A stretch of 64,000 nt of DNA, taken from IMG/VR virus record IMGVR_UViG_3300009605_000022; one strand, written 5' to 3'. A model generated the notes under the pieces. The model did no database searches and was not told where the DNA came from. It worked only from the letters and a program-made list of their open reading frames with translations. A program made the position numbers and the translations under genes. Positions within the stretch are counted from its first letter, which is position 1, and each line of letters opens with the position of its first letter. Positions 33,189-56,863 of the stretch are shown piece by piece. The DNA is from an uncultured virus (IMG/VR IMGVR_UViG_3300009605_000022). Its lineage: Duplodnaviria > Heunggongvirae > Uroviricota > Caudoviricetes.

Positions 33189-33511
33189 TGACCCTCTCTA
33201 TAAGCTTGTGCTTCTTCTGGTGTCATACGTGCAAATAACTTGTCTATGTTGTTCACCATTAGGTCTGATATCTTTATACCATACACATCACAAAGACGTG
33301 TTAAGTACCATAAGACATCACCCATCTCATCTATGATGAGCTCTTTGTTATCTACGTGGTCACGTATTTCTTTCTTAAATGCTCCACCGACTTCTCCGGC
33401 TTCATTCATTAAACCTATCATTAGGTATTCTTTTTCTCTACGCTTTGGATACTTCGCTGTTGTGCGAGTAAAATCCATATACGTAGATTCTATTCCTTTT
33501 ATATCTACCAT
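33185..33511 (-). CDS. mazG: MazG-like nucleotide pyrophosphohydrolase
   Basis: GLMNEAGEV...KK...DEMGDVLWY...NIDKL. Confidence 0.9.
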   Translation of the reverse strand: MVDIKGIESTYMDFTRTTAKYPKRREKEYLMIGLMNEAGEVGGAFKKEIRDHVDNKELIIDEMGDVLWYLTRLCDVYGIKISDLMVNNIDKLFARMTPEEAQAYREGQ

Positions 33512-33822
33512 ATATTCAACTCCTCAGGTAAATGTTTCATTACCTTCTTTCTCTCAGTTGGCATATATCTATATACCAAGTCTGACTTCTGGTCGCTCTG
33601 CACGACCCAAGGTTTTATAATAATTAAATCCTTCTCTCTGCACCAAGTTCTCTTTTTAAACTTACCACCAATCCTAACCATTCTCATATTCCCATCAGCA
33701 CATAGTGCTTTCATGCGGGAACCACCAGACATCTCAGTTACCACTGCGAATTGTTCACCCTTACGAGGGAACCTAATCTTTCTTGGCGTAGTAGGACTGG
33801 ACTGCTTTGAGTTCTTCGTCAT
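33505..33822 (-). CDS. eif1a: Archaeal translation initiation factor 1A homologue (aIF-1A)
   Basis: RFPRKGEQFAVVTEMSGGSRMKALCADG..RMVRIGGKFKKRTWCREKDLIIIKPW....KSDLVYRY; likely start at MTKNS (33822). Confidence 0.9.
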   Translation of the reverse strand: MTKNSKQSSPTTPRKIRFPRKGEQFAVVTEMSGGSRMKALCADGNMRMVRIGGKFKKRTWCREKDLIIIKPWVVQSDQKSDLVYRYMPTERKKVMKHLPEELNIW

Positions 33823-36016: not shown

Positions 36017-36189
36017 TCTATAGTTACTGTTGCTTTCCTTATGACATGTTCACCAGCAATTTCATCATACATCCATACAACATTATCACCTGCTTCTAAT
36101 TGCATACGTTCTAATATTGCATCTGGTATGTAAATTCTTTTATACTGGTCAATTGTCTTAACTGAACTGACTTGTTTTAATTCACTCAT
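36013..36189 (-). CDS. AbrB/MazE/SpoVT-like DNA-binding protein, 58 aa (not in ORF track)
   Basis: KTIDQYKRIYIPDAILERMQLEAGDNVVW; ATGA overlaps at both ends. Confidence 0.8.
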   Translation of the reverse strand: MSELKQVSSVKTIDQYKRIYIPDAILERMQLEAGDNVVWMYDEIAGEHVIRKATVTIE

Positions 36190-36563
36190 TTTATCTCCAC
36201 CAGTTTAGCACTGGTTTTTTCTTTCTTTTCTATAGCGACATCTAATATACCATTGTTCATAGTAGCTTCGACTGACTCATTGTCTAAGTCATAGTCAAAT
36301 CTTTTACTCCAGTTATATTCTTTGTCACCTTGTTTCGCTTCTACTGTAACTTTATTAGTTCCTACTTCTAAAGCAACATCTTCTTTACCAAATCCTGCTA
36401 ACTCAATAGTTACTGTTACAGTTCCGTTCTCTTCATTAACACTAACGGGGCTGTTCTCTTTCCTTCGAAGTTCTTGGTGCCATGCATGTGGTGCTGACTC
36501 TATCTCTCCTAAGAGGTCCATCCACATATCCATCATGGTTTCTATGTCACGACGAAATACCAT
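36186..36563 (-). CDS. Small heat-shock protein (Hsp20/alpha-crystallin)
   Basis: IELAGFGKEDV...ATMNNGILDVAIEK...LVEIK; GGAGG RBS before the ATG at 36563. Confidence 0.9.
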   Translation of the reverse strand: MVFRRDIETMMDMWMDLLGEIESAPHAWHQELRRKENSPVSVNEENGTVTVTIELAGFGKEDVALEVGTNKVTVEAKQGDKEYNWSKRFDYDLDNESVEATMNNGILDVAIEKKEKTSAKLVEIK

Positions 36564-36778
36564 CAGTCCTCCACTTTCGATGGACCATCTGCTACACGTT
36601 TCATTAATCTGAAGTAGGGCTTTGCTGCTCCTTCTTTCCAATAGGAGTTTCTGAACATTACAAATTCATCTCCTGCTTCTGATTTACCTGTGTAGTAAAC
36701 GTTTCCGTTCTTATCTGTGTTCCGGAACAATCCGGCTCTGAGCTCAAGGCTCGTTTTCTTAGTTTCTTTTTCTGTCAT
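36563..36778 (-). CDS. Small hypothetical protein (DUF736/PC4-like pattern)
   Basis: GLFRNTDKNGNVYYTG...MFRN...KPYFRL. Confidence 0.55.
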   Translation of the reverse strand: MTEKETKKTSLELRAGLFRNTDKNGNVYYTGKSEAGDEFVMFRNSYWKEGAAKPYFRLMKRVADGPSKVED

Positions 36779-38503: not shown

Positions 38504-39166
38504 TTACCATAGTGTTACCTTAAGTTTTATCCATGCTCTTACCCATCCATTAGGTTTAGGATTCTTGTAGCCTTTCCTAAGTTTCTTTGCACACCATCGA
38601 TACATTTCATTAGCGTATCTAATTGGTTTTCTAACATTTCTTGGTAGATATTTTAATCCACGTTCACCAAAGTAAAGTGACGCTTCAAACATATCTAAGT
38701 ATCTATTATGGTCTGTTCCTATATAATGGTATCCCCGTGCGACATCTTCATCATAGTCTCTGACGAAGTTAATTATCTGGTAAGCTCTACCTAAGTGCTC
38801 AGCGTAAGGATAAGCTGACTCTGGTGCATCTAATAGCTTAGCCATCATCAGTCCAATAACCTCAGCTGAACCTCTGCAATATCTTAGCATAGATTCATCA
38901 TCATGTATCTTATGATTCAAATCCATTCTCATAGAATTATAGAAGTCATGCTTCCATTCCATAGGCATATCATATTTTTTCTGAACGTATGCAAAGTTGT
39001 AAGCTAACCTCTCAAGGTCACCTACTACCTCGTCACCGTCGACTATGTTGTCTATGTGTCTTATAAATCCATACAACGCATATACATCCTTTTGCTTCTC
39101 AGTTGGAAAAGCTTTAGTGCAACATGCAAATGTTGTTGAACATTTATCCATTACTTCTTTCGTCAT
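38504..39166 (-). CDS. crtB: Phytoene/squalene synthase family protein
   Basis: VYALYGFIRHIDNIVD, YCRGSAEVIG, LGRAYQIINFVRDYDED..RG; likely start at MTKEV (39166). Confidence 0.85.
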   Translation of the reverse strand: MTKEVMDKCSTTFACCTKAFPTEKQKDVYALYGFIRHIDNIVDGDEVVGDLERLAYNFAYVQKKYDMPMEWKHDFYNSMRMDLNHKIHDDESMLRYCRGSAEVIGLMMAKLLDAPESAYPYAEHLGRAYQIINFVRDYDEDVARGYHYIGTDHNRYLDMFEASLYFGERGLKYLPRNVRKPIRYANEMYRWCAKKLRKGYKNPKPNGWVRAWIKLKVTLW

Positions 39167-39429
39167 GTTAATAACATGTATCCTACTGTAAATGATATAA
39201 CTATGAGACATGCCCATATGTATAACAGATAGTCGTAGGTTGTCCATTCCTCTTCTTTTTTATTCATTTGTTTTTTTACCTTTGGTTTTGCTACTATAAA
39301 GTGTGGAACTTTGTTCCAACAATCATCACAGAGATAGGCTCTGAGATGAGGGTCGTCACTCATGTAGTGTATTTTACACATCTTACAGTTGTGCCATAAT
39401 GCTTTGTAGTAAGTTGGATTAGGAGTCAT
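39163..39429 (-). CDS. Zn-finger protein with C-terminal TM helix
   Basis: CKMC...CDDC and hydrophobic tail. Confidence 0.55.
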   Translation of the reverse strand: MTPNPTYYKALWHNCKMCKIHYMSDDPHLRAYLCDDCWNKVPHFIVAKPKVKKQMNKKEEEWTTYDYLLYIWACLIVISFTVGYMLLT

Positions 39430-42185: not shown

Positions 42186-44303
42186 TCAAACTTTTATCAC
42201 CTTTCTTATTATTTTGCTTACCTCAGTAGATAACTTCTCGGTATCGTCAACAATTACATAGTTGGTAAACATCTGAGCCATACTTGATTCACGTGCACCT
42301 GAGATACCTATCTGAATAACACTCCAACCTTGTCCTTCTATATGTCTGACACACTTCTTAGTATGTGCGATTCCATCGAAGTGTCTGTAGTTTTTAGCTG
42401 AGGGCTCTCCATCTGAGATAACAATCATAAGTCTGTTACTACCCATTGATGGTGATTCAGCTTTTACTCTGTCAGCTGAGGCTAAGATAGCCATACCGTC
42501 TCGGTTCTCTGACCGAGCTCTCATAGCTCCCATAGCTTTTAAGTCACTCTTATAAGTTGGTGACCAGTAACAAGACATGTTTGTCTCACCGGTTCCATCC
42601 CAATCGTAACCGTCAGCAGTGTGACCATAAACCCATAAGTTTAGTTTGTCATTATCTTTGAGTGCTTCACGTATAGCGATTGCACTCTCACGTGCTTTTT
42701 GCATTTTGTATGAACCCATGCTACCTGACTCGTCAACTAAGAGACATACATCTAATGGTTTGTCTTCGTCAACAATAATGTTTTTGAATAAGTCAGTTCG
42801 ACCGAGGGGTATCTTATGTAACATACGTTTATCTAATCTACCTCTTGGTTGGTTGCGAATAGTGTAGGCTTGAGTGTTACCATAGAGTTGTATACGTTTC
42901 TTCAGTTGACTGATGCTCTGTTTCATTCTTGATACACCGTTGTCGTATGAATACTTGGCGTCGGTATGACTCTTTTGGTTTCTCCATGTAACTTTAGTTC
43001 CTTGTTTTAAACCGAGAGCTCTACCTGTGTCCCACTTTTCTTCGCTATACATAGTGTCTTCTAACTCTGTGATAGCTTTTTCTAAGTCTGTGCTGATAGT
43101 ATCTAAGTCTGCACTGTAGTCAGCCATCTCAGTTGATGCACTCTCTACTCCGTCCATGATAGTTCGCATAGGTCCGGCTCTATCTTCATACTTTTTGTCA
43201 TCGGTAGCTTTCTGAACTAATTTATCTAAGATGTCATCTAACTGACTCTCAGTTAATAATTCTTTTGTCTTATCATCCCAATCATTCATAAGCCTATCCA
43301 TTTCAGCTTCAGCTTTTTCTTTGGGTGATGGACCATCCTTTGCATCCTTCTCAGCTATATCTTTTGCCAACTGATTCATATACTCATAGATAGTTACAGT
43401 TGCTTCCCACATACTTTCTCGGTTGTTGTTTGAATTGACTAAAGCTCGAGCAAAGAACTGAATGTGATTCGCATGTCTTTTCTTTCTCTCTTCATCTAAA
43501 GCTGAGGGATATCTAACTAAGGCCAGTAAAGTATTGATTACATCACCGAACTCATTTACTTTTTCCATCTTGCTTCCATGCTTATCGAAGTAATGCTCTT
43601 TCACTTTTGCAATGTAGTGAGTGAACCCACCATGTGTTTTACCTAACTGAGACTCGATGAACTCATCTTCGAGTATGTTAGCTATATTATGTATAAGCTT
43701 TTCTTGAGGTGGTCTCAGCTTATGGTCATAAGCATATACTCTTTCTAATTTTAATAAAGGCTTACTGTAAACTAAATGTAACTTCTCGTGTATAGCAAGA
43801 CCAGCAACAATATCTAACTTAGAATCGTCTCGGTCTAACAATGTGCCGTCAACATAGATTAATCCACGGTTGATGTTGGAATAACTTTTCTCGGTTGCAT
43901 AGTTTAATACATGTTTTACAGTTGGGTCTACAACTTTACAGAGAGAATCAAGATGAGCTTTGTGTTTGACTAATCTTTTTTCTTTGTCCGCTCTGTCGAA
44001 GTGAGATGATGCACCCCACATAGAGGTCATAGCTCCGACGCCTCGGTTCCACCATGAACCACCACTACCCCACGTGAATCCGCTACTTCTACCATAAAGG
44101 TCACCAGTAGCTGAGACAGTTGGTGCAGTTGAACTGTATGCTTTTGCTACGTGTGGAGTGAGGAAAGGGTCGACTGTATTGTATTTGATACCACAGGCTT
44201 TACAGTTCCCGTGACCATCATCCGCAGTCCAGTCATCACATGCGTCACAGAAGTCATCTTCCGTGTCCTCAGCCCAATCGTCTATTGAATGTCCGTAATC
44301 CAT
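42186..44303 (-). CDS. VWA-domain protein (CobT/NorD-like, MoxR partner)
   Basis: MIDAS LVDESGSM, ISDGEP; N-terminal HEKLH and ILED. Confidence 0.9.
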   Translation of the reverse strand: MDYGHSIDDWAEDTEDDFCDACDDWTADDGHGNCKACGIKYNTVDPFLTPHVAKAYSSTAPTVSATGDLYGRSSGFTWGSGGSWWNRGVGAMTSMWGASSHFDRADKEKRLVKHKAHLDSLCKVVDPTVKHVLNYATEKSYSNINRGLIYVDGTLLDRDDSKLDIVAGLAIHEKLHLVYSKPLLKLERVYAYDHKLRPPQEKLIHNIANILEDEFIESQLGKTHGGFTHYIAKVKEHYFDKHGSKMEKVNEFGDVINTLLALVRYPSALDEERKKRHANHIQFFARALVNSNNNRESMWEATVTIYEYMNQLAKDIAEKDAKDGPSPKEKAEAEMDRLMNDWDDKTKELLTESQLDDILDKLVQKATDDKKYEDRAGPMRTIMDGVESASTEMADYSADLDTISTDLEKAITELEDTMYSEEKWDTGRALGLKQGTKVTWRNQKSHTDAKYSYDNGVSRMKQSISQLKKRIQLYGNTQAYTIRNQPRGRLDKRMLHKIPLGRTDLFKNIIVDEDKPLDVCLLVDESGSMGSYKMQKARESAIAIREALKDNDKLNLWVYGHTADGYDWDGTGETNMSCYWSPTYKSDLKAMGAMRARSENRDGMAILASADRVKAESPSMGSNRLMIVISDGEPSAKNYRHFDGIAHTKKCVRHIEGQGWSVIQIGISGARESSMAQMFTNYVIVDDTEKLSTEVSKIIRKVIKV

Positions 44304-44662
44304 TGTTCTACCTTTTCTATTTCGTCTTCGTCTTCAGCTATGAACTTGAACTTAAAGCACTCGAGTGACTTCTTAGCTGAGCCTACACTACACTGATAGA
44401 CAAACATGTCTTCAGCTGAGACTAATCCTAATGCCATCTCACTTGCTTGATTCCTATTCATAGTTGGTTTTACAGGAATAATAATATCTTCATCCTGTAG
44501 TAATCTTCTTTTGTATGCACCGATGTGTCTACCATTTATCTCAGTTTCTGGAAATACATCCTTAATAATGTGTGAACACATAGTGGGTTTCAATCCTAAC
44601 TGTAATAACATTTTAGCCAACTGATGCCAATACGTTTGTTTTCTGTTTCCTTTCTTACTCAT
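44282..44662 (-). CDS. Hypothetical protein
   Basis: Likely start at MSKKGNRK (44662). Confidence 0.55.
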   Translation of the reverse strand: MSKKGNRKQTYWHQLAKMLLQLGLKPTMCSHIIKDVFPETEINGRHIGAYKRRLLQDEDIIIPVKPTMNRNQASEMALGLVSAEDMFVYQCSVGSAKKSLECFKFKFIAEDEDEIEKVEQWITDIQ

Positions 44663-44824
44663 AATAAAACTCCGGTTCTCTATCTTCGAAATCGCTAACG
44701 AGCTGAGCAATGATGCCATAAATAATACTATTCTCCATATCTGTAGCCGGTTCGAGTGTTGAGAAGTAATCAGCTAAGATAGCAAACTCTTCCATGTCTA
44801 ACCCTACAACGAACTTAGGCAAAC

Positions 44825-45988
44825 TTAGTCCCCCATAGATTGAATGACTTGTATAACTCTAACTCTCTCAGTGTCGTCACCTGCTTGAACAGGGTAGAAT
44901 GGTAGACAGGTATGTTTGAGTGCATCGATTAAACTCATGCCGTCAACTACTAACTCAGCTACTGCTAAACACATACGTGTTGAGACAGCAGTCGTAAGTT
45001 CGTCTGAACTGTGTAGGTCACGCACTCTCTTAGCGAAGTCTACTATCTTCTCTGCTGAGTAGTCATCTAACTGAGGGTTACGAATCATAACTAATTCTTT
45101 TTCTTTACTCATAGGTAAGTAGTCTAACTCATAGATACCACCTGTGAACCTATCTTTCCATGCTCTATCTAAATCATGAGATGCACCGAGATACTCTCGG
45201 CCTATGTTAGCAGTAGCATAGAAGAATGCTTGACTGTCAACTGAGACAGCGTCAGCGTCTTCACTCTCATCGAGTGCTAAATACTTTTGACCATCTAACA
45301 CTGGCATGAGAATATTAGCTAAGTCACCTGTTCGGTCACGGGTAACCTCATCTAACATAATGAATGAGTTCTGTTGAATTGCTTGGACAAACCGAGATGG
45401 TTTGAACCATGTTCCTGCTTCTTTGTCATACTTAGTATCACCTAACAGTTTAGCTGAGGGATTCATAGTATCACCAAAGTTGAAAGAATAAAATTCTTTA
45501 TTGGTAATGTCTGCTAATATCTTACCGAGACTACTCTTACCACATCCTGATGGACCTGTGATGAGAATGTTCTTACCTCGAAATATATTGCGTAACATTG
45601 TGTAGAATGTAATGTTATCGGCGAACTTAAATTCCTCCGGTATTTGAACTGAGCCTCTTAGCTTAGCCATTACTGTTTGCTTTTCTTCTACGGGTTCCGG
45701 TTCACTGGCCGGTGCCTCTACTTGCATGGGGTCTTCCTCAGTTGGTTCGTCTTTACCGAACAAACTGCCTAAACCCTCGTGAGTCGTTTCTGATTCCATT
45801 GATTCTCCAGTATCATCTTCCTTTATAAAGGTATCGGTCATTGGACTGAGACCTGCTTTCCATCTCTTTATACCACGGGTATCGGCTGAGACATGCCATA
45901 TTCTTCCGTCACCACCTTTCTTCTCATGTCCTAAGTCATACCATGTCGCGGACTGAGTAGGTGATGGTCTTGTTTTTCTTTCTGCCAT
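44825..45988 (-). CDS. MoxR/CbbQ/CobS-like AAA+ ATPase
   Basis: GPSGCGKS, MLDEVTR, ATAN, DRAWKDRF, STR. Confidence 0.9.
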   Translation of the reverse strand: MAERKTRPSPTQSATWYDLGHEKKGGDGRIWHVSADTRGIKRWKAGLSPMTDTFIKEDDTGESMESETTHEGLGSLFGKDEPTEEDPMQVEAPASEPEPVEEKQTVMAKLRGSVQIPEEFKFADNITFYTMLRNIFRGKNILITGPSGCGKSSLGKILADITNKEFYSFNFGDTMNPSAKLLGDTKYDKEAGTWFKPSRFVQAIQQNSFIMLDEVTRDRTGDLANILMPVLDGQKYLALDESEDADAVSVDSQAFFYATANIGREYLGASHDLDRAWKDRFTGGIYELDYLPMSKEKELVMIRNPQLDDYSAEKIVDFAKRVRDLHSSDELTTAVSTRMCLAVAELVVDGMSLIDALKHTCLPFYPVQAGDDTERVRVIQVIQSMGD

Positions 45989-46741: not shown

Positions 46742-46789
46742 CTGATACTACATAGTAAACGCCCTTTATAAGCTTTTCCCTAAATCGGG

Positions 46790-47325
46790 GAGACCAACTG
46801 AGATTAACGTGTTTAAAACTATACTGAGAGCTATCCCTATATTAACTATATTAAGATATGGCTCTATTATGCAATATAGAGATATAATAAAAATGCTTTA
46901 TAGAGCTTGATTTGTAGAGCTATGATATACTGAGCAATGCTTAACTGAGCATGTTTTATTAAGCAATGCATAACTATGCTTATAATATATACACCCCCCT
47001 ACTATATAATACTTTGTCTCAGTTCACACATAACTGATAAAAGTTTTTTAAAACAGGCTCTACTAAGCAATTTTCTCATGCTCAGTTAGCGACAATGAAC
47101 TTAAACTGGTTTTAGTTTGGTATAGCTCAACTGAGAAGTGCTCAATTACTCACTGAGGGGGCCTGATAGAGCTTGCTCTTTTCTCACCCTGCCCTACAGA
47201 TAAACTGAGAGCTTGTTTTCTCACCCTCGGTTAGCGAGCTGAGAGATTTTTCTCATCGAGCCCTATAAAGCTAGGCTGAGAGAAGCTAAAAATAAAAAGA
47301 GAACTTAATAGAGCTGAGCTGAGAA
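46790..47325. repeat. Non-coding region with many short repeats (CTGAG, TAGAGC, TTTTCTCA); candidate origin or control region
   Basis: AGAGCTTG..TTTTCTCACCCT at 47168-47190 and 47208-47227; about a dozen CTGAG/CTCAG copies; AT-rich left half. Confidence 0.5.
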
Positions 47326-47326
47326 A

Positions 47327-47345
47327 TCCATACGTGTGGAAAAAT
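47327..47345. repeat. Module-boundary palindrome, copy 1
   Basis: TCCATACGTGTGGAAAAAT. Confidence 0.75.
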
Positions 47346-47375
47346 AAAAAAAGTTAGTTTATATAGGGGTGGGTA

Positions 47376-47575
47376 GGAGGATTTAATGTATACCTCCAAA
47401 CGCATTATGCCACTACATAGTAGATGCGTTACCAGTCTAACCTTCCTCCAGCAGTTGCTTCTCGGTTGGTTAATCCTGTGCCTTAGTCCGTGGCGGACTT
47501 GTTCGGCCATACCCGATTACGGAAGAGCTACTTCCATAAATGTAAAAGTGGGCAGTTTTCTGAGTTGCCCAGCTG
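47376..47575 (+). ncRNA. Candidate ~200-nt structured RNA (strand uncertain, + favoured)
   Basis: Five consecutive hairpins; plus-strand TTTATATA at 47358-47365; stem 47549-47571 extends by G-U pairs only on +. Confidence 0.4.
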
Positions 47576-47589
47576 CTTGATGTATTGAC

Positions 47590-47922
47590 TTACTTAAGCA
47601 ATCCTGCTTTCTTCATAGCTTTTTTCAATTCAGCTTCGGTAATTTTACCAGACTGAAGTGAAGCGACTACGGAATCAACAGATACTCCTTTGCGTTTTGC
47701 TCCTCTGAATGCTTGTAACTCGTTTGTGCGAGATGCAACCATTGAGGCGAACTTGTCTTCGTTCCTAAGCACATCTGATATTGCTATCATTGTGTCGTAT
47801 TTTACCCCTGTCGGGTAACGCTTACTTTCTCCGACGCCCTCGAATCCGAGATGGTCCAGTAAACCTGAAACCACCTTTTCATCTTTAGGTGCCCAGAGAT
47901 AATCCATGTTTGCTTTACTCAT
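47590..47922 (-). CDS. Hypothetical early protein
   Basis: AGGAG RBS; type-A promoter upstream. Confidence 0.7.
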   Translation of the reverse strand: MSKANMDYLWAPKDEKVVSGLLDHLGFEGVGESKRYPTGVKYDTMIAISDVLRNEDKFASMVASRTNELQAFRGAKRKGVSVDSVVASLQSGKITEAELKKAMKKAGLLK

Positions 47923-47935
47923 GTTTTCTCCTTAC

Positions 47936-47964
47936 TTACCAATAGAGTGTCCCTATTTAAGTTT
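47936..47964 (-). promoter_or_regulatory. Type-A promoter, copy 1
   Basis: (+) TTACCAATAGAGTGTCCCTATTTAAGTTT. Confidence 0.75.
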
Positions 47965-48202
47965 AACCCCTGCTGACTATTTGTCTGAGGTGCATTCTGT
48001 CAAAGATGTGAGGATTAGATAATCTCACGGACTCTGCTATCTCAAGATGCTCACCGCGGGAACCTGTTCCTACTGGTATCATCTCTTTATACATTCCATA
48101 CTTACCGTATGGGGTCGTGCCGACTTCAACAAAGTAGTCGACTGTCTGATTTTGACCGGCTCTCCAAGGAAGAGCTGTCTTAGTTTGAGTTGCTTTGCTC
48201 AT
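47963..48202 (-). CDS. Hypothetical early protein, probably leaderless
   Basis: ATG about 22 nt from the type-B TATA box. Confidence 0.7.
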   Translation of the reverse strand: MSKATQTKTALPWRAGQNQTVDYFVEVGTTPYGKYGMYKEMIPVGTGSRGEHLEIAESVRLSNPHIFDRMHLRQIVSRG

Positions 48203-48206
48203 AATA

Positions 48207-48255
48207 TACCAAGGACACCACCCTATATAAAGCTTTTTTCACCCGAGTGGAAAAA
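48207..48255 (-). promoter_or_regulatory. Type-B promoter plus boundary palindrome, copy 2
   Basis: (+) TACCAA..CTATATAAAGCTTTTTTCACCCGAGTGGAAAAA. Confidence 0.8.
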
Positions 48256-48260
48256 TAAAA

Positions 48261-48690
48261 AATGCAACTTCACCTGAGGCTCCGCGTGTTTAAGAAACAC
48301 CTCAGGGAGCGGTTGCCCGAGAGCACATTAATCTGCATAGGTAGTGCTACACGTGGGGTGTGACCTGTCGCCAGTCAAAAGGATATCCTTCACGAAAGGC
48401 GAACACAAGCATGAACAGGTGTGATACTCATAGCTTAACGGATTGATTCTATAACAGGGATAAAGTGATTCAAAGGTGATACATAATGTTAGCTACACGT
48501 CGTTCTAAAACTTAGATGCGCATCGACCGGAAAGGGATTGGGTCAGCACTGTTCAGCTAGTATTTGTTATGTGAATGTCTCGTTGTTGCGTATGGTTCGA
48601 TTTTGTTTCCTTGTCAGGTCACGTGTTACAGCTGATAACTGTAAGTGAGCGGGTGCAATACTATTTTGCTATTTTCATCTCCCCGCTCTG
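48261..48690 (-). ncRNA. Candidate ~430-nt structured ncRNA with its own promoter and U-rich terminator
   Basis: No minus-strand ORF in the track; starts directly under the type-A promoter; long-range GUGACCUG/CAGGUCAC helix; nested 3' helices; ends at UUUUUUAUUUUU. Confidence 0.7.
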
Positions 48691-48721
48691 TATTACCAAT
48701 AGAGTGTCTCTATATAAGCTT
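48691..48721 (-). promoter_or_regulatory. Type-A promoter, copy 2
   Basis: (+) TATTACCAATAGAGTGTCTCTATATAAGCTT. Confidence 0.8.
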
Positions 48722-48946
48722 TTCTCCCATGGACTTTATCTCACTGACATACACGTCACCGAGTTCAAAAGAACCATAAGTAAAATCTGATTTGACAGCG
48801 CAGAACCAACGGGCGTGTGGGTTCTTCGCTTCATTCTCAGCGTTTTGGTATTTCTTTAATACTCTCCATTCAAAGCCACGTGGGCCAGTCCAGACCTCGT
48901 AAGGGTCATCTGTTTTGCGGGTTTTACCGCACATGTTTTTAGTCAT
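48710..48946 (-). CDS. Conserved-looking small viral protein, probably leaderless
   Basis: KTRK.DDPY...EWRVLKKYQ...ARWFCAVKS...ELGDVY. Confidence 0.75.
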   Translation of the reverse strand: MTKNMCGKTRKTDDPYEVWTGPRGFEWRVLKKYQNAENEAKNPHARWFCAVKSDFTYGSFELGDVYVSEIKSMGEKLI

Positions 48947-48950
48947 ACAA

Positions 48951-48998
48951 TACCAAGGGTGGGGGTCTATATAAAGCTTTTTTCACACGAGTGGAAAA
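48951..48998 (-). promoter_or_regulatory. Type-B promoter plus boundary palindrome, copy 3
   Basis: (+) TACCAA..CTATATAAAGCTTTTTTCACACGAGTGGAAAA. Confidence 0.8.
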
Positions 48999-49389
48999 CC
49001 TCGAGGCGGGGGCAAAGGCCATAGCCCCCTAGAGGTGTCAAAACTGCTTACGAAATACGTCTGGCCTTTTTGATAATCTTATTCGTTCTCTTCTTCCAAC
49101 CTCGTTCTAAGTAGGTATCGTAGCTCATAAGCCACACCCACAGCAAGGTGCATCTTCACACCCGCAGAGGACAATATAGTCTCCTGCTTCACTTATACCA
49201 GAGATGACCATGTCATCTAAAATATCTAAGATGCTCTTCATTTGGTCAACCCCAGCTTGATTGCTTTTAGTTGGTCCAATACTCCGGAATCAATTTTATT
49301 CTTTTGTATGGTTCTGCGTGCTACTCTCCTGAAGCGGAAAGCGTTTCTGGTGTCTTGTATTGTTTGTTCTAACATGTTTATCTCCTATC

Positions 49390-49554
49390 TTACCATACTC
49401 CACAGGCTATATAAAACCTTTCATCATCGAACCGTGGGTTCTCTGCTTCATACTTTTTTGCGAAGTCTTTTGCTACCTGCATCTTTACCGATGCCGGCCA
49501 TCCTGTTGTCCTTATTAGGTCTGCTGTTGCTTGAAAATCTTTTCTTGTGTTCAT
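49390..49554 (-). CDS. Small protein (TRKDF...A.I...NPRFD..RF..AC pattern)
   Basis: GAGG RBS; start at MNTRKDF; followed by further short ORFs down to about 49050. Confidence 0.7.
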   Translation of the reverse strand: MNTRKDFQATADLIRTTGWPASVKMQVAKDFAKKYEAENPRFDDERFYIACGVW

Positions 49555-49569
49555 ATTTATTTCCTCGTA

Positions 49570-49600
49570 TATTACCAATAGGGTGTCCCTATATAAGCTT
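49570..49600 (-). promoter_or_regulatory. Type-A promoter, copy 3
   Basis: (+) TATTACCAATAGGGTGTCCCTATATAAGCTT, identical to 50320-50350. Confidence 0.8.
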
Positions 49601-49742
49601 ACCGGTGCCTCCACTTTCTCATTCTCACCAGCATACTTTGAGTTTGTAAACTCCTGCTGTAGAACTCTTCGAATTCCATTTTACCACCATATGATTTATA
49701 GTGATGCCAATTTGCTAACCTTTGTGTTTCGTATTTAGTCAT
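49599..49742 (-). CDS. 47-aa hypothetical protein, probably leaderless
   Basis: Start at MTKYETQ directly under the type-B promoter. Confidence 0.6.
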   Translation of the reverse strand: MTKYETQRLANWHHYKSYGGKMEFEEFYSRSLQTQSMLVRMRKWRHR

Positions 49743-49746
49743 AGTA

Positions 49747-49796
49747 TACCAACGGGTGTGTCTATATAAAGCTTTTTTCACACGTGTGGAAAAGCT
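49747..49796 (-). promoter_or_regulatory. Type-B promoter plus boundary palindrome, copy 4
   Basis: (+) TACCAA..CTATATAAAGCTTTTTTCACACGTGTGGAAAAGCT. Confidence 0.8.
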
Positions 49797-50132
49797 GGCG
49801 CCCCGCCGACTTAAAAGAAGCCGGTTATGGGGGTAACCTGCGTTTAGCTGTCCTACCATTATAGGCTGGCTTACTAAACTGAAGATGCGTCGCTACGTTT
49901 AACGCTCGGGCGGACTTATGCCTAAGGCCCTTCGCCATCACTTGTCAGGCGTCTCCTATTGTCCACGATGCTGGACAGTTTATTAGACTGACTCATACAC
50001 TTGCCCTTTCCGTTGGGGGAACCTACTCCTTCGGCCTCCTTCTTACAGTGTTCGTGGACTCACGGAACATAATCTCTTTTGGGCTGAGTGTAATACTATT
50101 TTACTATTTTCATCGTCTCAGCCCGTTAGAGG
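49797..50132 (-). ncRNA. Candidate ~335-nt structured ncRNA
   Basis: More GC-rich than the genome; no credible ORF; begins with the same hairpin motif as 48647-48688; several hairpins; G-U pair in CCGGCUU/AAGUCGG supports the minus strand. Confidence 0.65.
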
Positions 50133-50140
50133 TGCGTGGT

Positions 50141-50209
50141 TTATAATTTTCTTGTTGCGTATGATATTCCTACTAACCATGTTAGTAAGCTACTTTGGTA
50201 TGTGTTCAT
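50141..50209 (-). CDS. 22-aa microprotein
   Basis: MNTYQSSLLTWLVGISYATRKL; GGAGG RBS; TAATG coupling. Confidence 0.45.
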   Translation of the reverse strand: MNTYQSSLLTWLVGISYATRKL

Positions 50210-50307
50210 TAGTCGCCTCCTTTTCTTATTAAGTATTGATAGTGAAATGGTCTACCGTTTTTCTTAAAGTCTTTTGCTAGCTTTGCCCAGTGTTGTCTTC
50301 GTGTCAT
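50209..50307 (-). CDS. 32-aa basic microprotein
   Basis: MTRRQHWAKLAK...; AGAGG RBS under the type-A promoter. Confidence 0.55.
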   Translation of the reverse strand: MTRRQHWAKLAKDFKKNGRPFHYQYLIRKGGD

Positions 50308-50319
50308 GTTTTTCCTCTG

Positions 50320-50350
50320 TATTACCAATAGGGTGTCCCTATATAAGCTT
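50320..50350 (-). promoter_or_regulatory. Type-A promoter, copy 4
   Basis: (+) TATTACCAATAGGGTGTCCCTATATAAGCTT. Confidence 0.8.
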
Positions 50351-50441
50351 ATCCCCTGAACTCCGTCCAGCACTCCCAACATAGTTGAGAGTTGAAAAGT
50401 GTATAAGTCATGCATGCTGATTTATTACATTCTTCGCACAT
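50349..50441 (-). CDS. 30-aa Zn-finger microprotein
   Basis: MCEECNKSACMTYTLFNSQLCWECWTEFRG. Confidence 0.6.
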   Translation of the reverse strand: MCEECNKSACMTYTLFNSQLCWECWTEFRG

Positions 50442-50442
50442 T

Positions 50443-50559
50443 TTATTCCTCACCGGTCCAAAATGTTGCGAACATTTCAGTATCGCAATCTTCACATAGT
50501 CCACCGAATAATTCGATATCTTCCAAGCCACAGTCTTCACATTGTTGTTTTAATTCCAT
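50443..50559 (-). CDS. 38-aa Zn-finger microprotein (not in ORF track)
   Basis: MELKQQCEDCGLEDIELFGGLCEDCDTEMFATFWTGEE; GAGG RBS. Confidence 0.6.
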   Translation of the reverse strand: MELKQQCEDCGLEDIELFGGLCEDCDTEMFATFWTGEE

Positions 50560-50687
50560 TTGTATTCCTCGCTAATATACCAACGCGAGGTAACATATAT
50601 TACTTTGGGTGGGGCCTATCGTCGTGAACCTCAAAATCCTAAACAGGGGTATATAAGGGGGCCAATCCCGCTCGCGTTTTTTGGTGA

Positions 50688-50715
50688 AATTTTTTTTCAC
50701 ACGTGTGGAAAAATT
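50688..50715. repeat. Module-boundary palindrome, copy 5
   Basis: AA-T-run-CACACGTGTGGAAAAATT. Confidence 0.8.
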
Positions 50716-50762
50716 GCTGGGGGTTTATATACCCCCTTTTCCGGCGAATGGACTATATATAC

Positions 50763-51824: not shown

Positions 51825-51902
51825 AAAAAAACGCAAAAAAAATGACAAAAAAATGCAAAAAATCGCGCAAAAAATGCGCTAAAAAAACGCCAAAAACGCG
51901 CC
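51825..51902. repeat. Seven helically phased A-tracts (intrinsically bent DNA)
   Basis: A5-A8 tracts start at 51825, 51835, 51847, 51857, 51869, 51881 and 51892. Confidence 0.8.
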
Positions 51903-52265: not shown

Positions 52266-52751
52266 ATGTCCAAAAAAACCCAAAACGCAATTAAGTGGAT
52301 GTGTAACGACATTCGCGATTTGCTAATAGAAAAGAACAAGGCCTATGGCAACTCAGCTATAGACCCTGAGAACATATTCAGTAAGCTCGATAATGCACAA
52401 GCTATCTGTGCACGTATCGATGATAAGCTAGCTCGTATAAAGAACAGAGGGCTAGATGATAAAACAGAAGACACACTTGATGACCTCATAGGTTATTTAG
52501 TATTGCTCAAAGTCGCGAGGAGCGAGGAGGCAGCTAATGTGACTGTATGGACCATGTGTAATTGTGCGTTAGGGTGTACTATGTGTAGCAAGAGCTGTGA
52601 TTGCGTTTGCAATATGGAGCCTAATACATCTGATAAGTTTAGCGACTATAGCGAAGGTTATGCACCTCCGTGGAGTCAAGAGATAGAAAAGGTAACGGTC
52701 TTTGTTAGTGACCCCGGAGATGAAATGAAGCCTATAGAGAAAAAGGCTTAA
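52266..52751 (+). CDS. Nucleotide-modification-associated (MazG-fold, DUF1599-like) protein with Cys-rich tail
   Basis: EKNKAYGNS...RIDDKLARI...EDTLDDLIGY. Confidence 0.65.
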   Translation: MSKKTQNAIKWMCNDIRDLLIEKNKAYGNSAIDPENIFSKLDNAQAICARIDDKLARIKNRGLDDKTEDTLDDLIGYLVLLKVARSEEAANVTVWTMCNCALGCTMCSKSCDCVCNMEPNTSDKFSDYSEGYAPPWSQEIEKVTVFVSDPGDEMKPIEKKA

Positions 52752-53827
52752 TGGAGCTTAATATGATTGAGATAAAACATTTAATGAAAGACTCTTTAGT
52801 GCCTTTGGCTTTAGAGAGAGGAGGAACTGTAAAGCCTCTTATAATACCAGCAGCCGAGACCGGTGGGTTAGGATTATGCAACCCGTCGATATACCACGTA
52901 CCTAAGACATCTAAGTACTTGATTAATGTGCGTAATGTATCTTATTACTTACACCACTGTGAAGGAGACCAGAAGTACCAAACACCATGGGGTCCTTTGA
53001 ATTATGTAAGACCAGATAACGATGCATACCTAAGAACTAAGAATTTTATATGCGATTATAATTTAGGACAGGGTAAGATAACCAAGCATAAACTATTAGA
53101 TACATCTAAATTTAAGAAAGAACCTGAGTGGGACTTTGTAGGATTAGAGGATGGACGTATAGTGGAGTGGGAAGGTAAAACATATTTAACCGGCGTTAGG
53201 CGCTACGCGCCTGATGGCAAAGGAAGGATGGTGCTGTCTGAAATTGAGATTACTAAAAAAGGAGTCAAGGAAGTTGGTCGATATGTGATGGACTCTCCTA
53301 ATGGTCCTGAAGAATACTGTGAGAAGAACTGGATGCCTATCTTAGATATGCCATTCCATTATGTTCATACAGCTAACCCACTTAAGATTGTCAAAGTAGA
53401 TATAAATGAAAAGTGGAAACATAACCCAATAAAGTATAGGTGTCCTGTTAACGTAGTACACGAAGGTAAAGAAGAGATACCTCTACAGTTAGACCCTCGT
53501 GGCAGTTCACAACTTGTACCATGGAAGGATGGTTATCTATGTGTAACACATGAATGTGACTACTGGCATAATGAGAAAAATGACAGAGACGCACATTACT
53601 ATCACAGGTTTATATACTGGGACAAAGAATGGAACCTAAAAGGATATTCACAACCGTACAAGTTTATGGATGGTAGAATAGAATTCTGTTGTGGTATGGC
53701 AGGTCACCCTGATGCACAGTGTGATGACATGCTTATAACATATGGCTTCCAAGATAATTCTGCTTATGTACTACACATAAAAGAAGACCATATACTAGAG
53801 TTATTGGAGCATTCAAATAAGGAATGA
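52751..53827 (+). CDS. Beta-propeller glycosidase/phosphorylase-like protein
   Basis: NPSI, GLEDGR, EKNWMP, RGSS, YYHRF, IEFCCG, YGFQD. Confidence 0.6.
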   Translation: MELNMIEIKHLMKDSLVPLALERGGTVKPLIIPAAETGGLGLCNPSIYHVPKTSKYLINVRNVSYYLHHCEGDQKYQTPWGPLNYVRPDNDAYLRTKNFICDYNLGQGKITKHKLLDTSKFKKEPEWDFVGLEDGRIVEWEGKTYLTGVRRYAPDGKGRMVLSEIEITKKGVKEVGRYVMDSPNGPEEYCEKNWMPILDMPFHYVHTANPLKIVKVDINEKWKHNPIKYRCPVNVVHEGKEEIPLQLDPRGSSQLVPWKDGYLCVTHECDYWHNEKNDRDAHYYHRFIYWDKEWNLKGYSQPYKFMDGRIEFCCGMAGHPDAQCDDMLITYGFQDNSAYVLHIKEDHILELLEHSNKE

Positions 53828-55449
53828 ACAATTACTGGAAAACCACAGCGTGGCCTACGCTAGAGATAACAACCTCAATTCCTAAAGCAGGATGCGTAGT
53901 TGATTGTGTCTTTTGTCCACAACGAGTCTTACAGAAAGTATGGGATGCTGAGAAGTTCACTACTAACGCAGCTAGAACTATGAAGCTCGAGGACTTCAAG
54001 ATGGTAATAGATAAATTACCTAAAGAAGTGAGGATTACTTTCTCAGGGTTCACCGAACCTTGGTTAAATAAAAATACTACTGACATGTTGTTATATGCAC
54101 ATGAGCAGGGACATAGGGTATCCGTATTTACTACAGCAGTAGGTATGCAACTCAAAGACGTTGAAAGAATAAAAGACATTCCATTCTGTGGTGGACCTAA
54201 TGGTGGGTTTACTTTACACTTACCTGATACAGAAAGGTTAGCCAAACATCCAGTAAATAAGAAGTACATTAAAGTAGTTCAAGCACTTAAAGACGCCAAT
54301 ATCAATAATTTTCAAACGATGTCTATGGGCATGGTTCATGAAGAGGTGGTAGATATTTATCCAGACGAAGAAGTCAATAAATATGAAATGTGGCACAGAG
54401 CAGGTAACCTATTAGGTGAAGCTCAACTTAAACCAGAAGTAAAAGAAGTATGGGATAGATTTAAATCAATAATGCATGAGGATGAAATGACATGTGGTTG
54501 TGTAGAAGATTTATATCATAATATCTTATTACCTAATGGTGAAGTATCTTTATGTTGTATGGATTATAATTTAGAAGAGATACTTGGTAATTTATATACT
54601 GAAGAGTATGACGACATACTACCACCACCAAATACTACATATGATATGTGTAGCAGGTGTGAGAATGGTGTTCCACCTATGAAACTAAGTGGATGGGAAG
54701 AAGAGATAACAATAAACCCACAAGGAACATCACCAGAGAGTAATGCACCTATTCTCGTCAAAGAAGAAACAATAGATAGATTAGATTATAACAATTACTT
54801 TGTTCCAGAAGCTATGGTACAATATTTAGATAATAATAAAGTTCCAGAGCATGAAATAATAAACTGGGCTAAGAATAACTTCTGTCATAACGAAAAGACG
54901 TTTGTAGACATAGGAGCACATGTTGGTACATATACATGGACACTAGCACCGTTCTTTAGTAGTACAGTTAGTTTCGAACCTACTAAGTCAACATATAATT
55001 ATTTATGTGGAAACGTAATGCTTAAGAACCTGTCAAAGAAAGTTACAACTCATAACGTAGCTTTAGGTGCAGAAGAAACTACCATGATGTTTTACGAAAG
55101 AAGTAAAGATGGTGGTACTAATGGATTGAACTTAGATTACAACAATGGTAAATGGTTAGGTAATGACCAAGACCACTACGAAGTAAAAGTAAATAGATTA
55201 GATGATTATAAACTAATGAATGTAGGATTTATAAAAATAGATGTAGAAGGCTATGAGCTTGCAGTATTAAAAGGAGCAACCACAACATTACAGAACAATG
55301 GTTACCCTCCAATACTATTCGAAAGCTGGCCTGCTAACAATCCAGAGAATACTTTATTGAAAGATAATTTATTTAATTACTTATTCGCATTAGGATACAA
55401 AATAGGAAGTACACCACACCCCGAGATATTTATAGCAAGGAAAGATTAA
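53824..55449 (+). CDS. Radical SAM/SPASM protein fused to an FkbM-family methyltransferase
   Basis: CVVDCVFC, FSGFTEP, NGEVSLCCMD, C..C; then VDIGAHVG, SFEP, IKIDVEGYE..VLKG. Confidence 0.85.
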   Translation: MNNYWKTTAWPTLEITTSIPKAGCVVDCVFCPQRVLQKVWDAEKFTTNAARTMKLEDFKMVIDKLPKEVRITFSGFTEPWLNKNTTDMLLYAHEQGHRVSVFTTAVGMQLKDVERIKDIPFCGGPNGGFTLHLPDTERLAKHPVNKKYIKVVQALKDANINNFQTMSMGMVHEEVVDIYPDEEVNKYEMWHRAGNLLGEAQLKPEVKEVWDRFKSIMHEDEMTCGCVEDLYHNILLPNGEVSLCCMDYNLEEILGNLYTEEYDDILPPPNTTYDMCSRCENGVPPMKLSGWEEEITINPQGTSPESNAPILVKEETIDRLDYNNYFVPEAMVQYLDNNKVPEHEIINWAKNNFCHNEKTFVDIGAHVGTYTWTLAPFFSSTVSFEPTKSTYNYLCGNVMLKNLSKKVTTHNVALGAEETTMMFYERSKDGGTNGLNLDYNNGKWLGNDQDHYEVKVNRLDDYKLMNVGFIKIDVEGYELAVLKGATTTLQNNGYPPILFESWPANNPENTLLKDNLFNYLFALGYKIGSTPHPEIFIARKD

Positions 55450-55451
55450 CA

Positions 55452-56111
55452 ATGAGACAAATAGAAATAAAATTAGAAGAATACCTAGCAGACCCCACAG
55501 AACCAATGACCAGTTTCAACATGGGACTTGAGTATGAACTCATAGGGCAGTATGCCTCTGCAATGGGATACTATCTGAAAGCAGCTGAATTAACAGATGA
55601 TGATAAGTTAGCATACGAATGTTTACTTAGAAAAGCAATGTGTTATAAAGAGTTACCAGATAGATGGGCACATGTAAGAATTAATTGTTTACACGCAGTT
55701 AGTTTGATGCCAGAAAGACCTGAAGCATATCATTTGCTGTCTGTAGCTTACGAGAACACAGGCAATTGGATAGAATCATATACATGGGCTAAAGTAGGAC
55801 AAAGATTAAATGGAATAGCTAAGAATGATATATTAAGAACAGATGTACAATATGCTGGACATTATGTATTAAGATTTCAACAAGCTGTTGCAGAATGGCA
55901 TCTAGGTAGATTCCAAGAATCAATAGACCAATTCAAAGCTTTACTTGAAGAAGAACCTTTAGACTTAGCTTATCAAGGTCATTGTAAATGGAATGTAGAC
56001 CACCTAGAAGGTAGAGATGCAGATGCACTTGCTGGTATTAAGAAAGGTAAGAGCACTACTGATAAAGATGAGATAATTAAAAAGATAATGGAGAAACAAC
56101 AAAAGAAGTAA
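55452..56111 (+). CDS. TPR-repeat protein
   Basis: Helical repeats: AMGYYLKAAE, PERPEAY, GRFQES. Confidence 0.7.
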   Translation: MRQIEIKLEEYLADPTEPMTSFNMGLEYELIGQYASAMGYYLKAAELTDDDKLAYECLLRKAMCYKELPDRWAHVRINCLHAVSLMPERPEAYHLLSVAYENTGNWIESYTWAKVGQRLNGIAKNDILRTDVQYAGHYVLRFQQAVAEWHLGRFQESIDQFKALLEEEPLDLAYQGHCKWNVDHLEGRDADALAGIKKGKSTTDKDEIIKKIMEKQQKK

Positions 56112-56113
56112 TT

Positions 56114-56863
56114 ATGTTAGATGAGCTAGAAGATGTAGGTTGGATATCCGAAGAAGACTTCAAAGAGATGAAGAGTCTCGGTATAGAAACCCCTAAAGAG
56201 TATTTTAAATATAAAGATAATATAACCACTAGAGATGTAGAAGATATATTATTAGAATCAGTAAAACATGTTACAGTTAAAGAAGGCTCATTACCTACAT
56301 TGATTGTTATCGACGATTTCTTTAACGACCCTGATTCAGTAAGAGACTTTGCTATGACTAGAGACTTTGTACCACGTGGAGAACATGGTGCAGTAGGGCA
56401 CAGAACTTTAGTTCACCATCATTTTGATGGAGTAAGAGAACACTTTGAAAAAGTACTTGGTTCTAAGATATTAGATGGAAAAGACATAGGTGGTTGGGAT
56501 TACCAACCTAATGGTACATTCCAACACTGTATGGCAGAAGACCCTTTTGTTATTCATGCAGATGACCAACAATGGGCAGCTATGGTATATCTAACACCTG
56601 ACGCACCACCAGAGTGTGGAACTTCTATGTATAGACATAAAGAGTCAGGAATGGATGCAATACGTAAAAAGGAGTGGCACATATTTAAAGAAAACTTTTA
56701 TGATGCAACACCCTTTGAGTTAGTAGATAAGATAGGAAACAAATACAATCGTTGTGTGATTATGGATGCTAAACTAATACACGCAGCTTCACAATACTTT
56801 GGCGACAATATAAAAAATGATAGATTATTTCAAATATACTTTTTTGATACGGAGAACAAATAA
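56114..56863 (+). CDS. 2OG-Fe(II) oxygenase (DUF6445-like)
   Basis: IDDFFNDPD.VR, HAD, YLTPD...GT..Y, YNR...H, RLFQ. Confidence 0.8.
   Translation: MLDELEDVGWISEEDFKEMKSLGIETPKEYFKYKDNITTRDVEDILLESVKHVTVKEGSLPTLIVIDDFFNDPDSVRDFAMTRDFVPRGEHGAVGHRTLVHHHFDGVREHFEKVLGSKILDGKDIGGWDYQPNGTFQHCMAEDPFVIHADDQQWAAMVYLTPDAPPECGTSMYRHKESGMDAIRKKEWHIFKENFYDATPFELVDKIGNKYNRCVIMDAKLIHAASQYFGDNIKNDRLFQIYFFDTENK

Follow-up and report, generated by a model that had tools for sequence, protein, structure and literature searches.

Architecture of the array

The window analysed here, the whole 64,000-nucleotide (nt) stretch of uncultured virus record IMGVR_UViG_3300009605_000022, is a nearly complete genome of a marine tailed virus with signals of archaeal type. 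Between 47.3 and 50.7 kb, its minus strand carries an array in which copies of a short DNA dyad alternate with repeated promoter cores, small open reading frames (ORFs) and three structured RNAs: nc4, nc2 and the known manA RNA. Five dyads (P0 to P4), four strict and one degenerate, split the region into units of 919, 795, 744 and ~907 bp, in agreement with the five palindromes and four units of a first-pass annotation made from the sequence alone. Read along the minus strand, the array comprises the following features, in which SD denotes a Shine-Dalgarno sequence and BRE a transcription factor B recognition element:

50719-50736, minus: GC hairpin (GGGGGTATATAAACCCCC), then a T run that is the left arm of P0; terminator-like
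50690-50713, minus: dyad P0 (TTTTTCCAC ACGT GTGAAAAAAAA), closing the upstream o46 unit; no TATA directly behind
50572-50606, minus: displaced promoter of unit 4, TAATATATG then TTGGTATATT, followed by a GAGG-bearing leader; equivalent sites in relatives
50443-50559, minus: o38zn, 38-aa CxxC...CxxC ORF; directly behind dyad and promoter in many relatives, in a different slot in some
50349-50441, minus: o30zn, 30-aa CxxC ORF, preceded by its own SD and ending in a TAA that overlaps the next BRE
50319-50350, minus: dyad-less promoter core ('A' of unit 4)
50209-50307, minus: o32, 32-aa ORF; replaced by other short ORFs in relatives
50085-50125, minus: hairpin with a conserved 27-nt loop and covarying stem, copy 1
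49837-50073, minus: core of structured RNA nc4, ~235 nt
49773-49793, minus: dyad P1
49743-49772, minus: promoter core abutting P1 ('B' of unit 3); TATATAG 19 nt before the ATG, no SD
49599-49742, minus: o47, 47-aa ORF; an insertion relative to most relatives, in other slots in L016, L086, L081, L073 and L131
49569-49600, minus: dyad-less promoter core ('A' of unit 3); o47 stops at the TAG of TATATAG
49390-49554, minus: o54, 54-aa ORF; homologue directly behind dyad and promoter in most relatives
49387-49418, minus: third promoter core of unit 3
49238-49375, minus: o45, behind the third core of unit 3
49125-49241, minus: o38b, behind the third core of unit 3
48978-48998, minus: dyad P2, with a GC hairpin (GGGGGC...GCCCCC) ahead of it
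48947-48976, minus: promoter core abutting P2
48710-48946, minus: o78, 78-aa ORF; in every relative covering the slot
48690-48721, minus: dyad-less promoter core ('A' of unit 2), heading nc2 with no intervening ORF
48645-48690, minus: hairpin with the same 27-nt loop, copy 2
48357-48625, minus: core of structured RNA nc2, ~270 nt, with long-range closing helix GUGACCUG/CAGGUCAC
48256-48325, minus: 3' stem-loop behind nc2 (GGCAAC...GUUGC, inner covarying helix), then a T run; absent in L020 and L030
48234-48255, minus: dyad P3
48203-48232, minus: promoter core abutting P3
47963-48202, minus: o79, 79-aa ORF, conserved from its first residue
47933-47965, minus: dyad-less promoter core ahead of o110
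47590-47922, minus: o110, 110-aa conserved ORF, always ahead of manA
47366-47539, minus: manA RNA (Rfam RF01745), full-length match
47327-47344, minus: dyad P4, terminal and degenerate; T7-A-T5 ahead, no promoter behind

The dyad spans 20-24 bp and has the consensus TTTTCCAC-nCGn-GTGAAAAA, also given as TTTTCCAC-nCGn-GTG(A/G)AAAA. Its four strict copies have minus-strand cores at 50695-50710, 49776-49791, 48981-48996 and 48237-48252; counted over both strands, the strict pattern matched 8 times against 0.63 expected, a count attained by none of 100 shuffles. In each of two complete relatives the dyad occurs five times, always on the same strand, and these copies are confined to 2.8 kb. The window and 18 relatives supply 68 distinct copies, in which neither arm varies and the centre follows N-C-G-N (C in 56 and G in 61 copies), with variable flanks. 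The right arm contains GTGA in 61 of the 68, which creates a C.A mismatch when read as RNA, and the arms show zero covariation. Because the arms are invariant without covariation and the symmetric centre is conserved, these patterns point to a double-stranded DNA site for a dimer rather than to an RNA stem-loop. When the five unit ends were folded, four were no more stable than shuffles (z between -0.2 and -1.8), and the fifth (z of -3.4) owed its stability to the upstream GC hairpin; the dyad hairpin is not always formed. Given the mismatch and these unreliable folds, a role as a hairpin-type terminator is doubtful.

The position of the dyad is highly regular. All copies lie at 3' ends of units, including the promoterless ones after manA and before unit 4, and each comes after a GC hairpin or a structured RNA that the T run of the dyad extends. 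The right arm overlaps the BRE position of an adjoining promoter, but two of the five window dyads, and terminal copies in at least 10 relatives, have no such neighbour. The palindrome had originally been tied to a promoter 'B' behind it; this link did not survive, since the first and last copies lack an adjacent TATA and what the dyad marks is the 3' end of a unit. Its placement behind hairpins and structured RNAs with a T run, together with the promoterless copies after manA, makes it likely that the dyad also acts as a boundary or terminator.

Behind the terminal dyad lies a ~550-bp ORF-free stretch (46790-47325) dense in short repeats (ACTGAGA/CTGAGAG, TTTTCTCA), which may be iterons or an origin; CTGAG-rich DNA similarly borders the array in relatives.

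A single promoter core, TATATAG-N10-TTGGTAT, recurs through the units. The first-pass annotation had proposed a fixed unit order with two promoter types, 'A' and 'B'; the underlying repeats are real, but the two types are one core that differs solely in the presence of the dyad. Three dyads lead straight into GCTTTATATAG, and the 30-mer joining dyad and TATA occurs three times against 0 expected. The 'A' 32-mer AAGCTTATATAGRGACACYCTATTGGTAATAC also occurs three times against 0 expected, with looser copies at 47933-47965 and 49387-49418. Upstream of the TATA, the BRE position reads AAAGC or AAAAAAGC. In all four units a stop codon falls inside the next promoter (TAA at 47963, TAG of TATATAG at 48710 and 49599, TAA at 50349), an overlap that had been recognized correctly, although the last stop belongs to o30zn rather than to the 38-aa ORF or a 63-aa GTG frame.

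Archaeal transcription starts ~22-24 nt downstream of the TATA box, and the spacing of signals in the window agrees with this value. At dyad-bearing promoters the ATG stands 19-20 nt past TATATAG, abutting the TTGGTATAYT block, with no SD. Across the 85 ORFs of the window, the TATA 8-mer ends 20-23 nt before the ATG of ORFs without an SD and 32-36 nt before that of ORFs with one, and the same geometry holds beyond the array at ORFs starting at 46741, 38288 and 57875. This spacing fits an archaeal start that would yield leaderless messages where the SD is missing and 11-14-nt leaders where it is present. The N-termini of the array proteins are conserved from the first ATG residue in the relatives compared. 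In these distances, the predicted promoters have the geometry of the archaeal BRE/TATA type. As a separate observation, o110 has an SD-bearing leader in the window but is leaderless, directly behind the core, in several relatives (compared: L012, L023, L007 and L037).

The proteins themselves gave few clues. The 12 array ORFs scanned matched no Pfam family and gave no more than a single weak match to a PHROG of unknown function; NCBIfam returned nothing useful for array ORFs, and the ESM Atlas placed them in hypothetical viral clusters only. AlphaFold models of o110 and o79 were poor (pLDDT 59.9 and 53.2).

Structured RNAs carried by the array

The first-pass annotation had described part of the cargo as long, structured, non-coding and unrelated between units. 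Structured RNA is indeed present in the form of manA, nc2 and nc4, but it is conserved across relatives rather than filler. The manA RNA matches Rfam RF01745 over model positions 1-192 with 64.6 bits against a gathering score of 55.2 (E of 3e-15 to 3.8e-14), and it recurs at the same position in all 12 relatives covering it, 10 of them at 56.6-69.2 bits and two at ~51 bits, below the gathering score. Weinberg et al. 2010 describe manA as a candidate element of 5' untranslated regions (UTRs) in cyanophages, Photobacterium and marine metagenomes (PMC2864571). The element here agrees with that family, matching the full model with scores that exceed the gathering threshold in the window and 10 relatives, but differs in setting: it lies 3' of the small ORF o110 and is closed by the dyad, in a virus with archaeal-type signals. 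It is followed by T7-A-T5, the terminal dyad and the ~550 bp of repeats, with no gene for ~600 nt until an ORF starting at 46741, and so does not form the 5' UTR of a downstream gene as the proposed cis-regulator would. In a full-text literature search on manA RNA or wcaG RNA, none of the papers listed dealt with an archaeal virus, judged from titles. A 2026 cryo-EM preprint reports that manA RNAs assemble in vitro into closed oligomers of up to 60 subunits (10.64898/2026.07.01.735769).

The other two RNAs, nc2 and nc4, are real structured RNAs with strong covariation that are absent from Rfam, where searches at E up to 10 returned only chance-level matches. For nc2, 16 of 32 predicted pairs show compensatory changes among 13 sequences; 98.8% of alignment cells are paired, compared to 26-54% when partners are slid, and none of 500 shuffles matched the score. 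For nc4, 22 of 50 pairs are compensatory among 15 sequences, with 99.5% of cells paired compared to 37-49% when slid. Within IMG/VR, the conserved blocks of both are confined to this virus lineage. The stem-loop at 48256-48325, behind nc2, is a separate module, since it is missing from two relatives (L020 and L030). No bulge-helix-bulge motif was seen by eye at the nc2 closing helix.

Both RNAs are represented in metatranscriptomes. Run X16 contains a 266-nt contig identical to the nc2 core (48359-48624), several identical contigs occur in run X17, and in X17 another contig, of 164 nt, is identical to nc4 over 49893-50056. In these two runs, which come from two studies, contigs end at 48624/48625, the foot of the nc2 closing helix and ~63 nt past the predicted start. 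This coincidence is only a weak hint of a defined 5' end of nc2. The runs are assemblies from which starts, ends and levels cannot be read and in which uncovered parts, including manA, are uninformative. One contig ending at 48624/48625 carries sequence that we take to be Illumina adapter.

A hairpin with the conserved 27-nt loop GATGAAAATAGYAAAATAGTATTRCAC and a covarying stem stands before nc2 or nc4, at 48645-48690 and 50085-50125 in the window and also in L006, L007, L020, L028, L034, L036 and L038; in some relatives other hairpins take its place. Assignment of this hairpin as a C/D-box small nucleolar RNA was rejected, as Rfam scores reached only 17-24 bits, which is chance level, and no k-turn was seen by eye.

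Exchange of small genes among relatives

We compared 50 arrays: the window, 18 distinct IMG/VR relatives (19 contigs were found and one was dropped as identical) and 31 further non-redundant metagenome loci, drawn from 65 fetched of >223 matching stretches. The scaffold is conserved, as foreseen by the first-pass annotation, in 19 IMG/VR contigs and >223 metagenome stretches; the window stretch itself occurs in marine DNA runs of many different studies, at least 14 in number. Another IMG/VR record, G001, is nearly identical to the window and stops at window position 46767, right beside the array.

The two halves of the array behave differently. The distal half (o78, nc2, dyad, o79, o110, manA, dyad) is constant in all arrays. 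The order nc4, nc2, manA is kept in all 29 loci in which two or more of these RNAs were flagged by blastn, and a non-coding gap follows o78 (324-470 nt, 31 of 31 loci) and o110 (239-362 nt, 10 of 10). In the proximal half, by contrast, 26 loci show nine arrangements between nc4 and o78, the commonest accounting for 15 of them, or 19 if detection of o45 is ignored. The earlier proposal of exchangeable contents on a conserved scaffold thus holds for the small ORFs, which are swapped, inserted or moved with breakpoints at the motif, but not for the three RNAs, which are fixed.

Individual cassettes illustrate these exchanges. Compared to its closest relative, L034, the window has o47 and a promoter copy inserted before o54; homology ends at 49736, at the ATG behind the B core, and resumes at 49395, inside the o45 promoter. 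The o47 family occupies the first slot in L016 and L086, and o38zn the second slot in L016, L081 and L086. A 150-aa ORF of the GP88 family (PF17338, 77.6 bits in the one copy scanned), absent from the window, forms an extra dyad-bounded unit at L097:2531-2980 and eight other loci (family f5), and further ORFs likewise form extra units in some loci. Five families (o47, o38zn, o54, f9 and o78) are found behind dyad-bearing and dyad-less promoters alike. The variable 11-nt promoter spacer is also unlinked from ORF family across 58 promoters: one spacer type precedes o54 (11 cases), o78 (5) and o47 (2), and a second precedes o79 (4), o38zn (4), o54 (2), o29 (1) and o78 (1). Joints found in runs X18 and X19 come from relatives at 90-95% identity and give only a hint of an o38zn-o45 junction in another sample.

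As noted from the first inspection of the window, no recombinase is apparent: Pfam searches revealed no integrase and no tyrosine or serine recombinase among the 85 window ORFs, and PF00589 and PF00239 were absent from the two complete relatives, with positive controls. The genome does contain genes for a RecU-like resolvase and a PD-(D/E)XK nuclease. Homologous recombination between the repeated cores would be the simplest account of the exchange.

Readings of the array and the virus that carries it

The host is very probably an archaeon, a view to which both the promoter geometry and a virus-encoded translation factor point. This factor, an archaeal-type initiation factor aIF-1A (33505-33858, minus), scores 99.5 bits against a cut-off of 91 in NCBIfam, and all six NCBIfam matches are aIF-1A/eIF-1A models; the Hsp20 of the virus is likewise matched best by archaeal models (NCBIfam). 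Marine metagenomes and viromes yielded 144 aIF-1A homologues, of which the best 120 are 60-96% identical. A search of genome contigs with aIF-1A gave a single 23-residue match in a Paenibacillus contig, which was judged spurious, and the sole name in the aIF-1A cluster, a Maricaulis-labelled metagenome-assembled genome, was taken as a mis-binned viral contig. The magrovirus paper names just cobS/cobT and was of no help with host lineage. The GenBank phage collection contains no close relative by DNA, family B DNA polymerase (PolB), large terminase (TerL) or aIF-1A; its TerL and PolB matches are distant only (20-24% identity) and mainly from cyanophages.

Taken together, we consider it probable that the array consists of boundary-plus-promoter elements, resembling the promoter-early stem-loop (PeSL) cassettes of T4-type phages, that organize ORFans and three structured RNAs into insulated mini-operons and also serve as recombination substrates. 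The region would be the promoter-proximal, probably early part of the leftward block of a ~67-kb marine tailed virus, and its location at the head of that block, rich in ORFans, fits an early-gene role. Each of four mini-operons would run from a BRE/TATA promoter with an initiator region to a 20-24-bp dyad whose T run trails a GC-rich hairpin or structured RNA and whose A run abuts the next BRE, while dyad-less promoter copies within units would start second cistrons. The conserved payload is nc4, nc2 and manA with the small proteins o78, o79 and o110, the other ORFans being accessory. Dyad and promoter would give each cassette its own start and boundary, as in a PeSL, and the repetition of the element would provide homology for recombination to insert, delete or move ORF cassettes. 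The data demonstrate the anatomy of the motif, its confinement to the array, its conservation, the mosaic of cassettes, the covariation of the RNAs and the identity of manA; start sites, termination at the T run, a dimeric regulator on the dyad, early expression and the functions of the RNAs are inferences from these.

Several points weigh against this picture. As an RNA hairpin the dyad is weak, given the mismatch in 61 of 68 copies and the unreliable folds, and many copies have a T run of just 4 nt. A candidate dyad-binding protein was not found among window and array ORFs in Pfam, PHROGs or the ESM Atlas. Shuffling is occasional rather than rampant, as 19 of 26 loci share one arrangement between nc4 and o78, and recombination at the motif was deduced from mosaic patterns and not seen as junction reads. 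The promoters, terminators and timing are predictions from sequence, the RNA data being assembled contigs, and the promoter hexamers are also legible as a sigma-70 -35 and extended -10. The aIF-1A homologues are marine sequences without an organism name and lead to no host.

The most serious competitor, plausible although we put it at less than even, holds that the dyad is purely an operator on which a dimeric DNA-binding regulator, viral or host, would cover the BRE and so switch all dyad-bearing promoters together as a co-regulated early regulon, with T runs alone terminating transcription and mosaicism as a by-product. The invariant, non-covarying arms and conserved central CG fit two-fold recognition of double-stranded DNA better than a hairpin loop, and the overlap of the right arm with the BRE and the weakness of the RNA hairpin agree with it. 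What an operator leaves unexplained is the two window dyads and the terminal copies in at least 10 relatives that have no neighbouring promoter; nor was any DNA-binding domain recognized among the array ORFs, although the quality of the o79 and o110 models did not permit a fold search. A reading at the RNA level, in which a long primary transcript would be cut at or near each hairpin to release and stabilize nc4, nc2 and manA, seems unlikely. A dyad does lie directly behind every structured RNA, and the contig ends at 48624/48625 in two studies hint at a processed 5' end, but these ends may reflect strain variation flanking a conserved core, and the dyad lies 3' of the extra stem-loop of nc2 rather than at the contig ends. 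The mismatched, unreliably formed hairpin, whose arms never covary, is also hard to reconcile with cleavage.

Similarly improbable is a bacteriophage with literal PeSLs, that is, with sigma-70 promoters (-35 TTTATA, extended -10 TGGTATAMT) and rho-independent terminators. Two B promoters do read as 9/12 matches with the TG extension, the distant TerL and PolB matches lie mostly in cyanophages, and manA is so far known from cyanophages and gamma-proteobacteria (PMC2864571). However, the would-be -10 runs straight into the ATG, which would place a sigma-70 start within ORFs that are conserved from that ATG, and SD-bearing ORFs have their TATA 11-14 nt further upstream, as an archaeal start predicts. 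The virus-encoded aIF-1A, with six of six NCBIfam matches, argues in the same direction, and sigma-70-like sites are not clearly in excess (18 compared to 12.9 in shuffles, s.d. 3.1). An integron-like system using the palindromes as site-specific recombination sites is close to refuted and, in our estimate, highly improbable: regularly spaced palindromes do separate variable small ORFs, but neither the 85 window ORFs nor the two complete relatives contain a tyrosine or serine recombinase, the cassettes carry their own promoters, and breakpoints also fall at dyad-less promoter copies. Integron attC sites are far longer than the 20-24 bp of the dyad.

Described systems agree with the array in some respects and depart from it in others. 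PeSL cassettes are a promoter plus a stem-loop, dense among ORFans of T4-type phages, that mediate modular shuffling (Arbiol et al. 2010, PMC2839356; Comeau et al. 2014, PMC4122927). Shared with them are a composite repeated element of promoter and inverted repeat, small ORFans in a plastic region, a predicted start and boundary of its own for each cassette, and element-bounded indels or replacements in relatives. The strong sigma-70 early promoter of PeSLs seems to be missing, as the start-codon spacing, SD pattern and aIF-1A fit an archaeal TATA with BRE/TATA geometry. The dyad is one invariant sequence with a conserved centre and a weak hairpin, whereas PeSL stems are variable poly-G/poly-C, and the array places five copies in one 3.4-kb locus with three structured RNAs as payload. 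The first-pass annotation knew of no such layout in archaeal viruses, yet a precedent exists: in the haloarchaeal myovirus HGTV-1, most left-arm ORFs are preceded by a TATA-like box and an inverted repeat that have been likened to PeSLs, according to a review that summarizes Sencilo et al. 2013 (PMC3950731). Set side by side from that description, both are tailed viruses of archaea, in the present case probably so, with repeated TATA and inverted repeat before many small ORFs, but HGTV-1 is of another lineage, from hypersaline water rather than marine plankton, and the description reports no structured RNA cargo. Integron attC arrays resemble the locus in their spaced palindromes between exchangeable small genes and differ from it by their integrase, whereas here every cassette has its own promoter and the palindromes are short and invariant. 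As PeSL cassettes share its logic and the HGTV-1 motif is similar, the scaffold is of a kind already known; what appears to be new is the symmetric, invariant dyad confined to one locus, the fixed payload of three RNAs and the occurrence of manA outside a 5' UTR in a virus with archaeal-type signals.

These results extend the PeSL principle, in which repeated elements insulate and shuffle small genes, to a widespread uncultured marine lineage with archaeal-type signals, and provide a clean data set over 50 arrays in which the distal half is invariant and the proximal half variable. The position of manA outside a 5' UTR and beyond cyanophages and gamma-proteobacteria bears on its role, given its reported self-assembly. 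The two new, strongly supported RNAs of 235-270 nt have defined boundaries, promoters and natural variants and are ready for structural or functional work, and the promoter series offers natural mutants of marine archaeal virus promoters, with the core present with or without dyad and leader, sometimes for the same gene across strains. More tentatively, the array may serve above all to express three abundant structured RNAs, always the same ones, in a widespread marine virus of archaea. In this view nc2 and nc4 would represent new large viral RNA classes that work together with manA and might build RNA assemblies or act as decoys or host-takeover RNAs, and the dyad would be the site of a regulator timing their burst.

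The remainder of the genome is that of a tailed virus, encoding a tape-measure protein, a collagen-like tail fibre, TerL, PolB, a class II ribonucleotide reductase, CobS/CobT-like proteins, Hsp20, MazG and the PD-(D/E)XK nuclease. Of the two 100%-complete relatives, one has terminal repeats and a length of 67,299 bp; the other is 69,348 bp long. Auxiliary genes in the window are:

23809-25674: B12-dependent ribonucleotide reductase
36186-36641: Hsp20
38504-39247: squalene/phytoene synthase-like
42186-45988: CobT-like and CobS-like

L002 and L004 lack any counterpart of a four-gene block at 52751-56863 (an unknown protein of 358 aa; radical SAM/SPASM with FkbM methyltransferase; TPR; DUF6445) but are otherwise collinear with the window across this part. 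Genes run rightward to ~23 kb, leftward from 51.8 to 23.3 kb and rightward again from 52.3 kb. Where the leftward and rightward gene blocks diverge, the intergenic DNA contains five to seven A tracts phased at 10-13 bp (51825-51896), which suggests bent DNA and perhaps an origin or control region.

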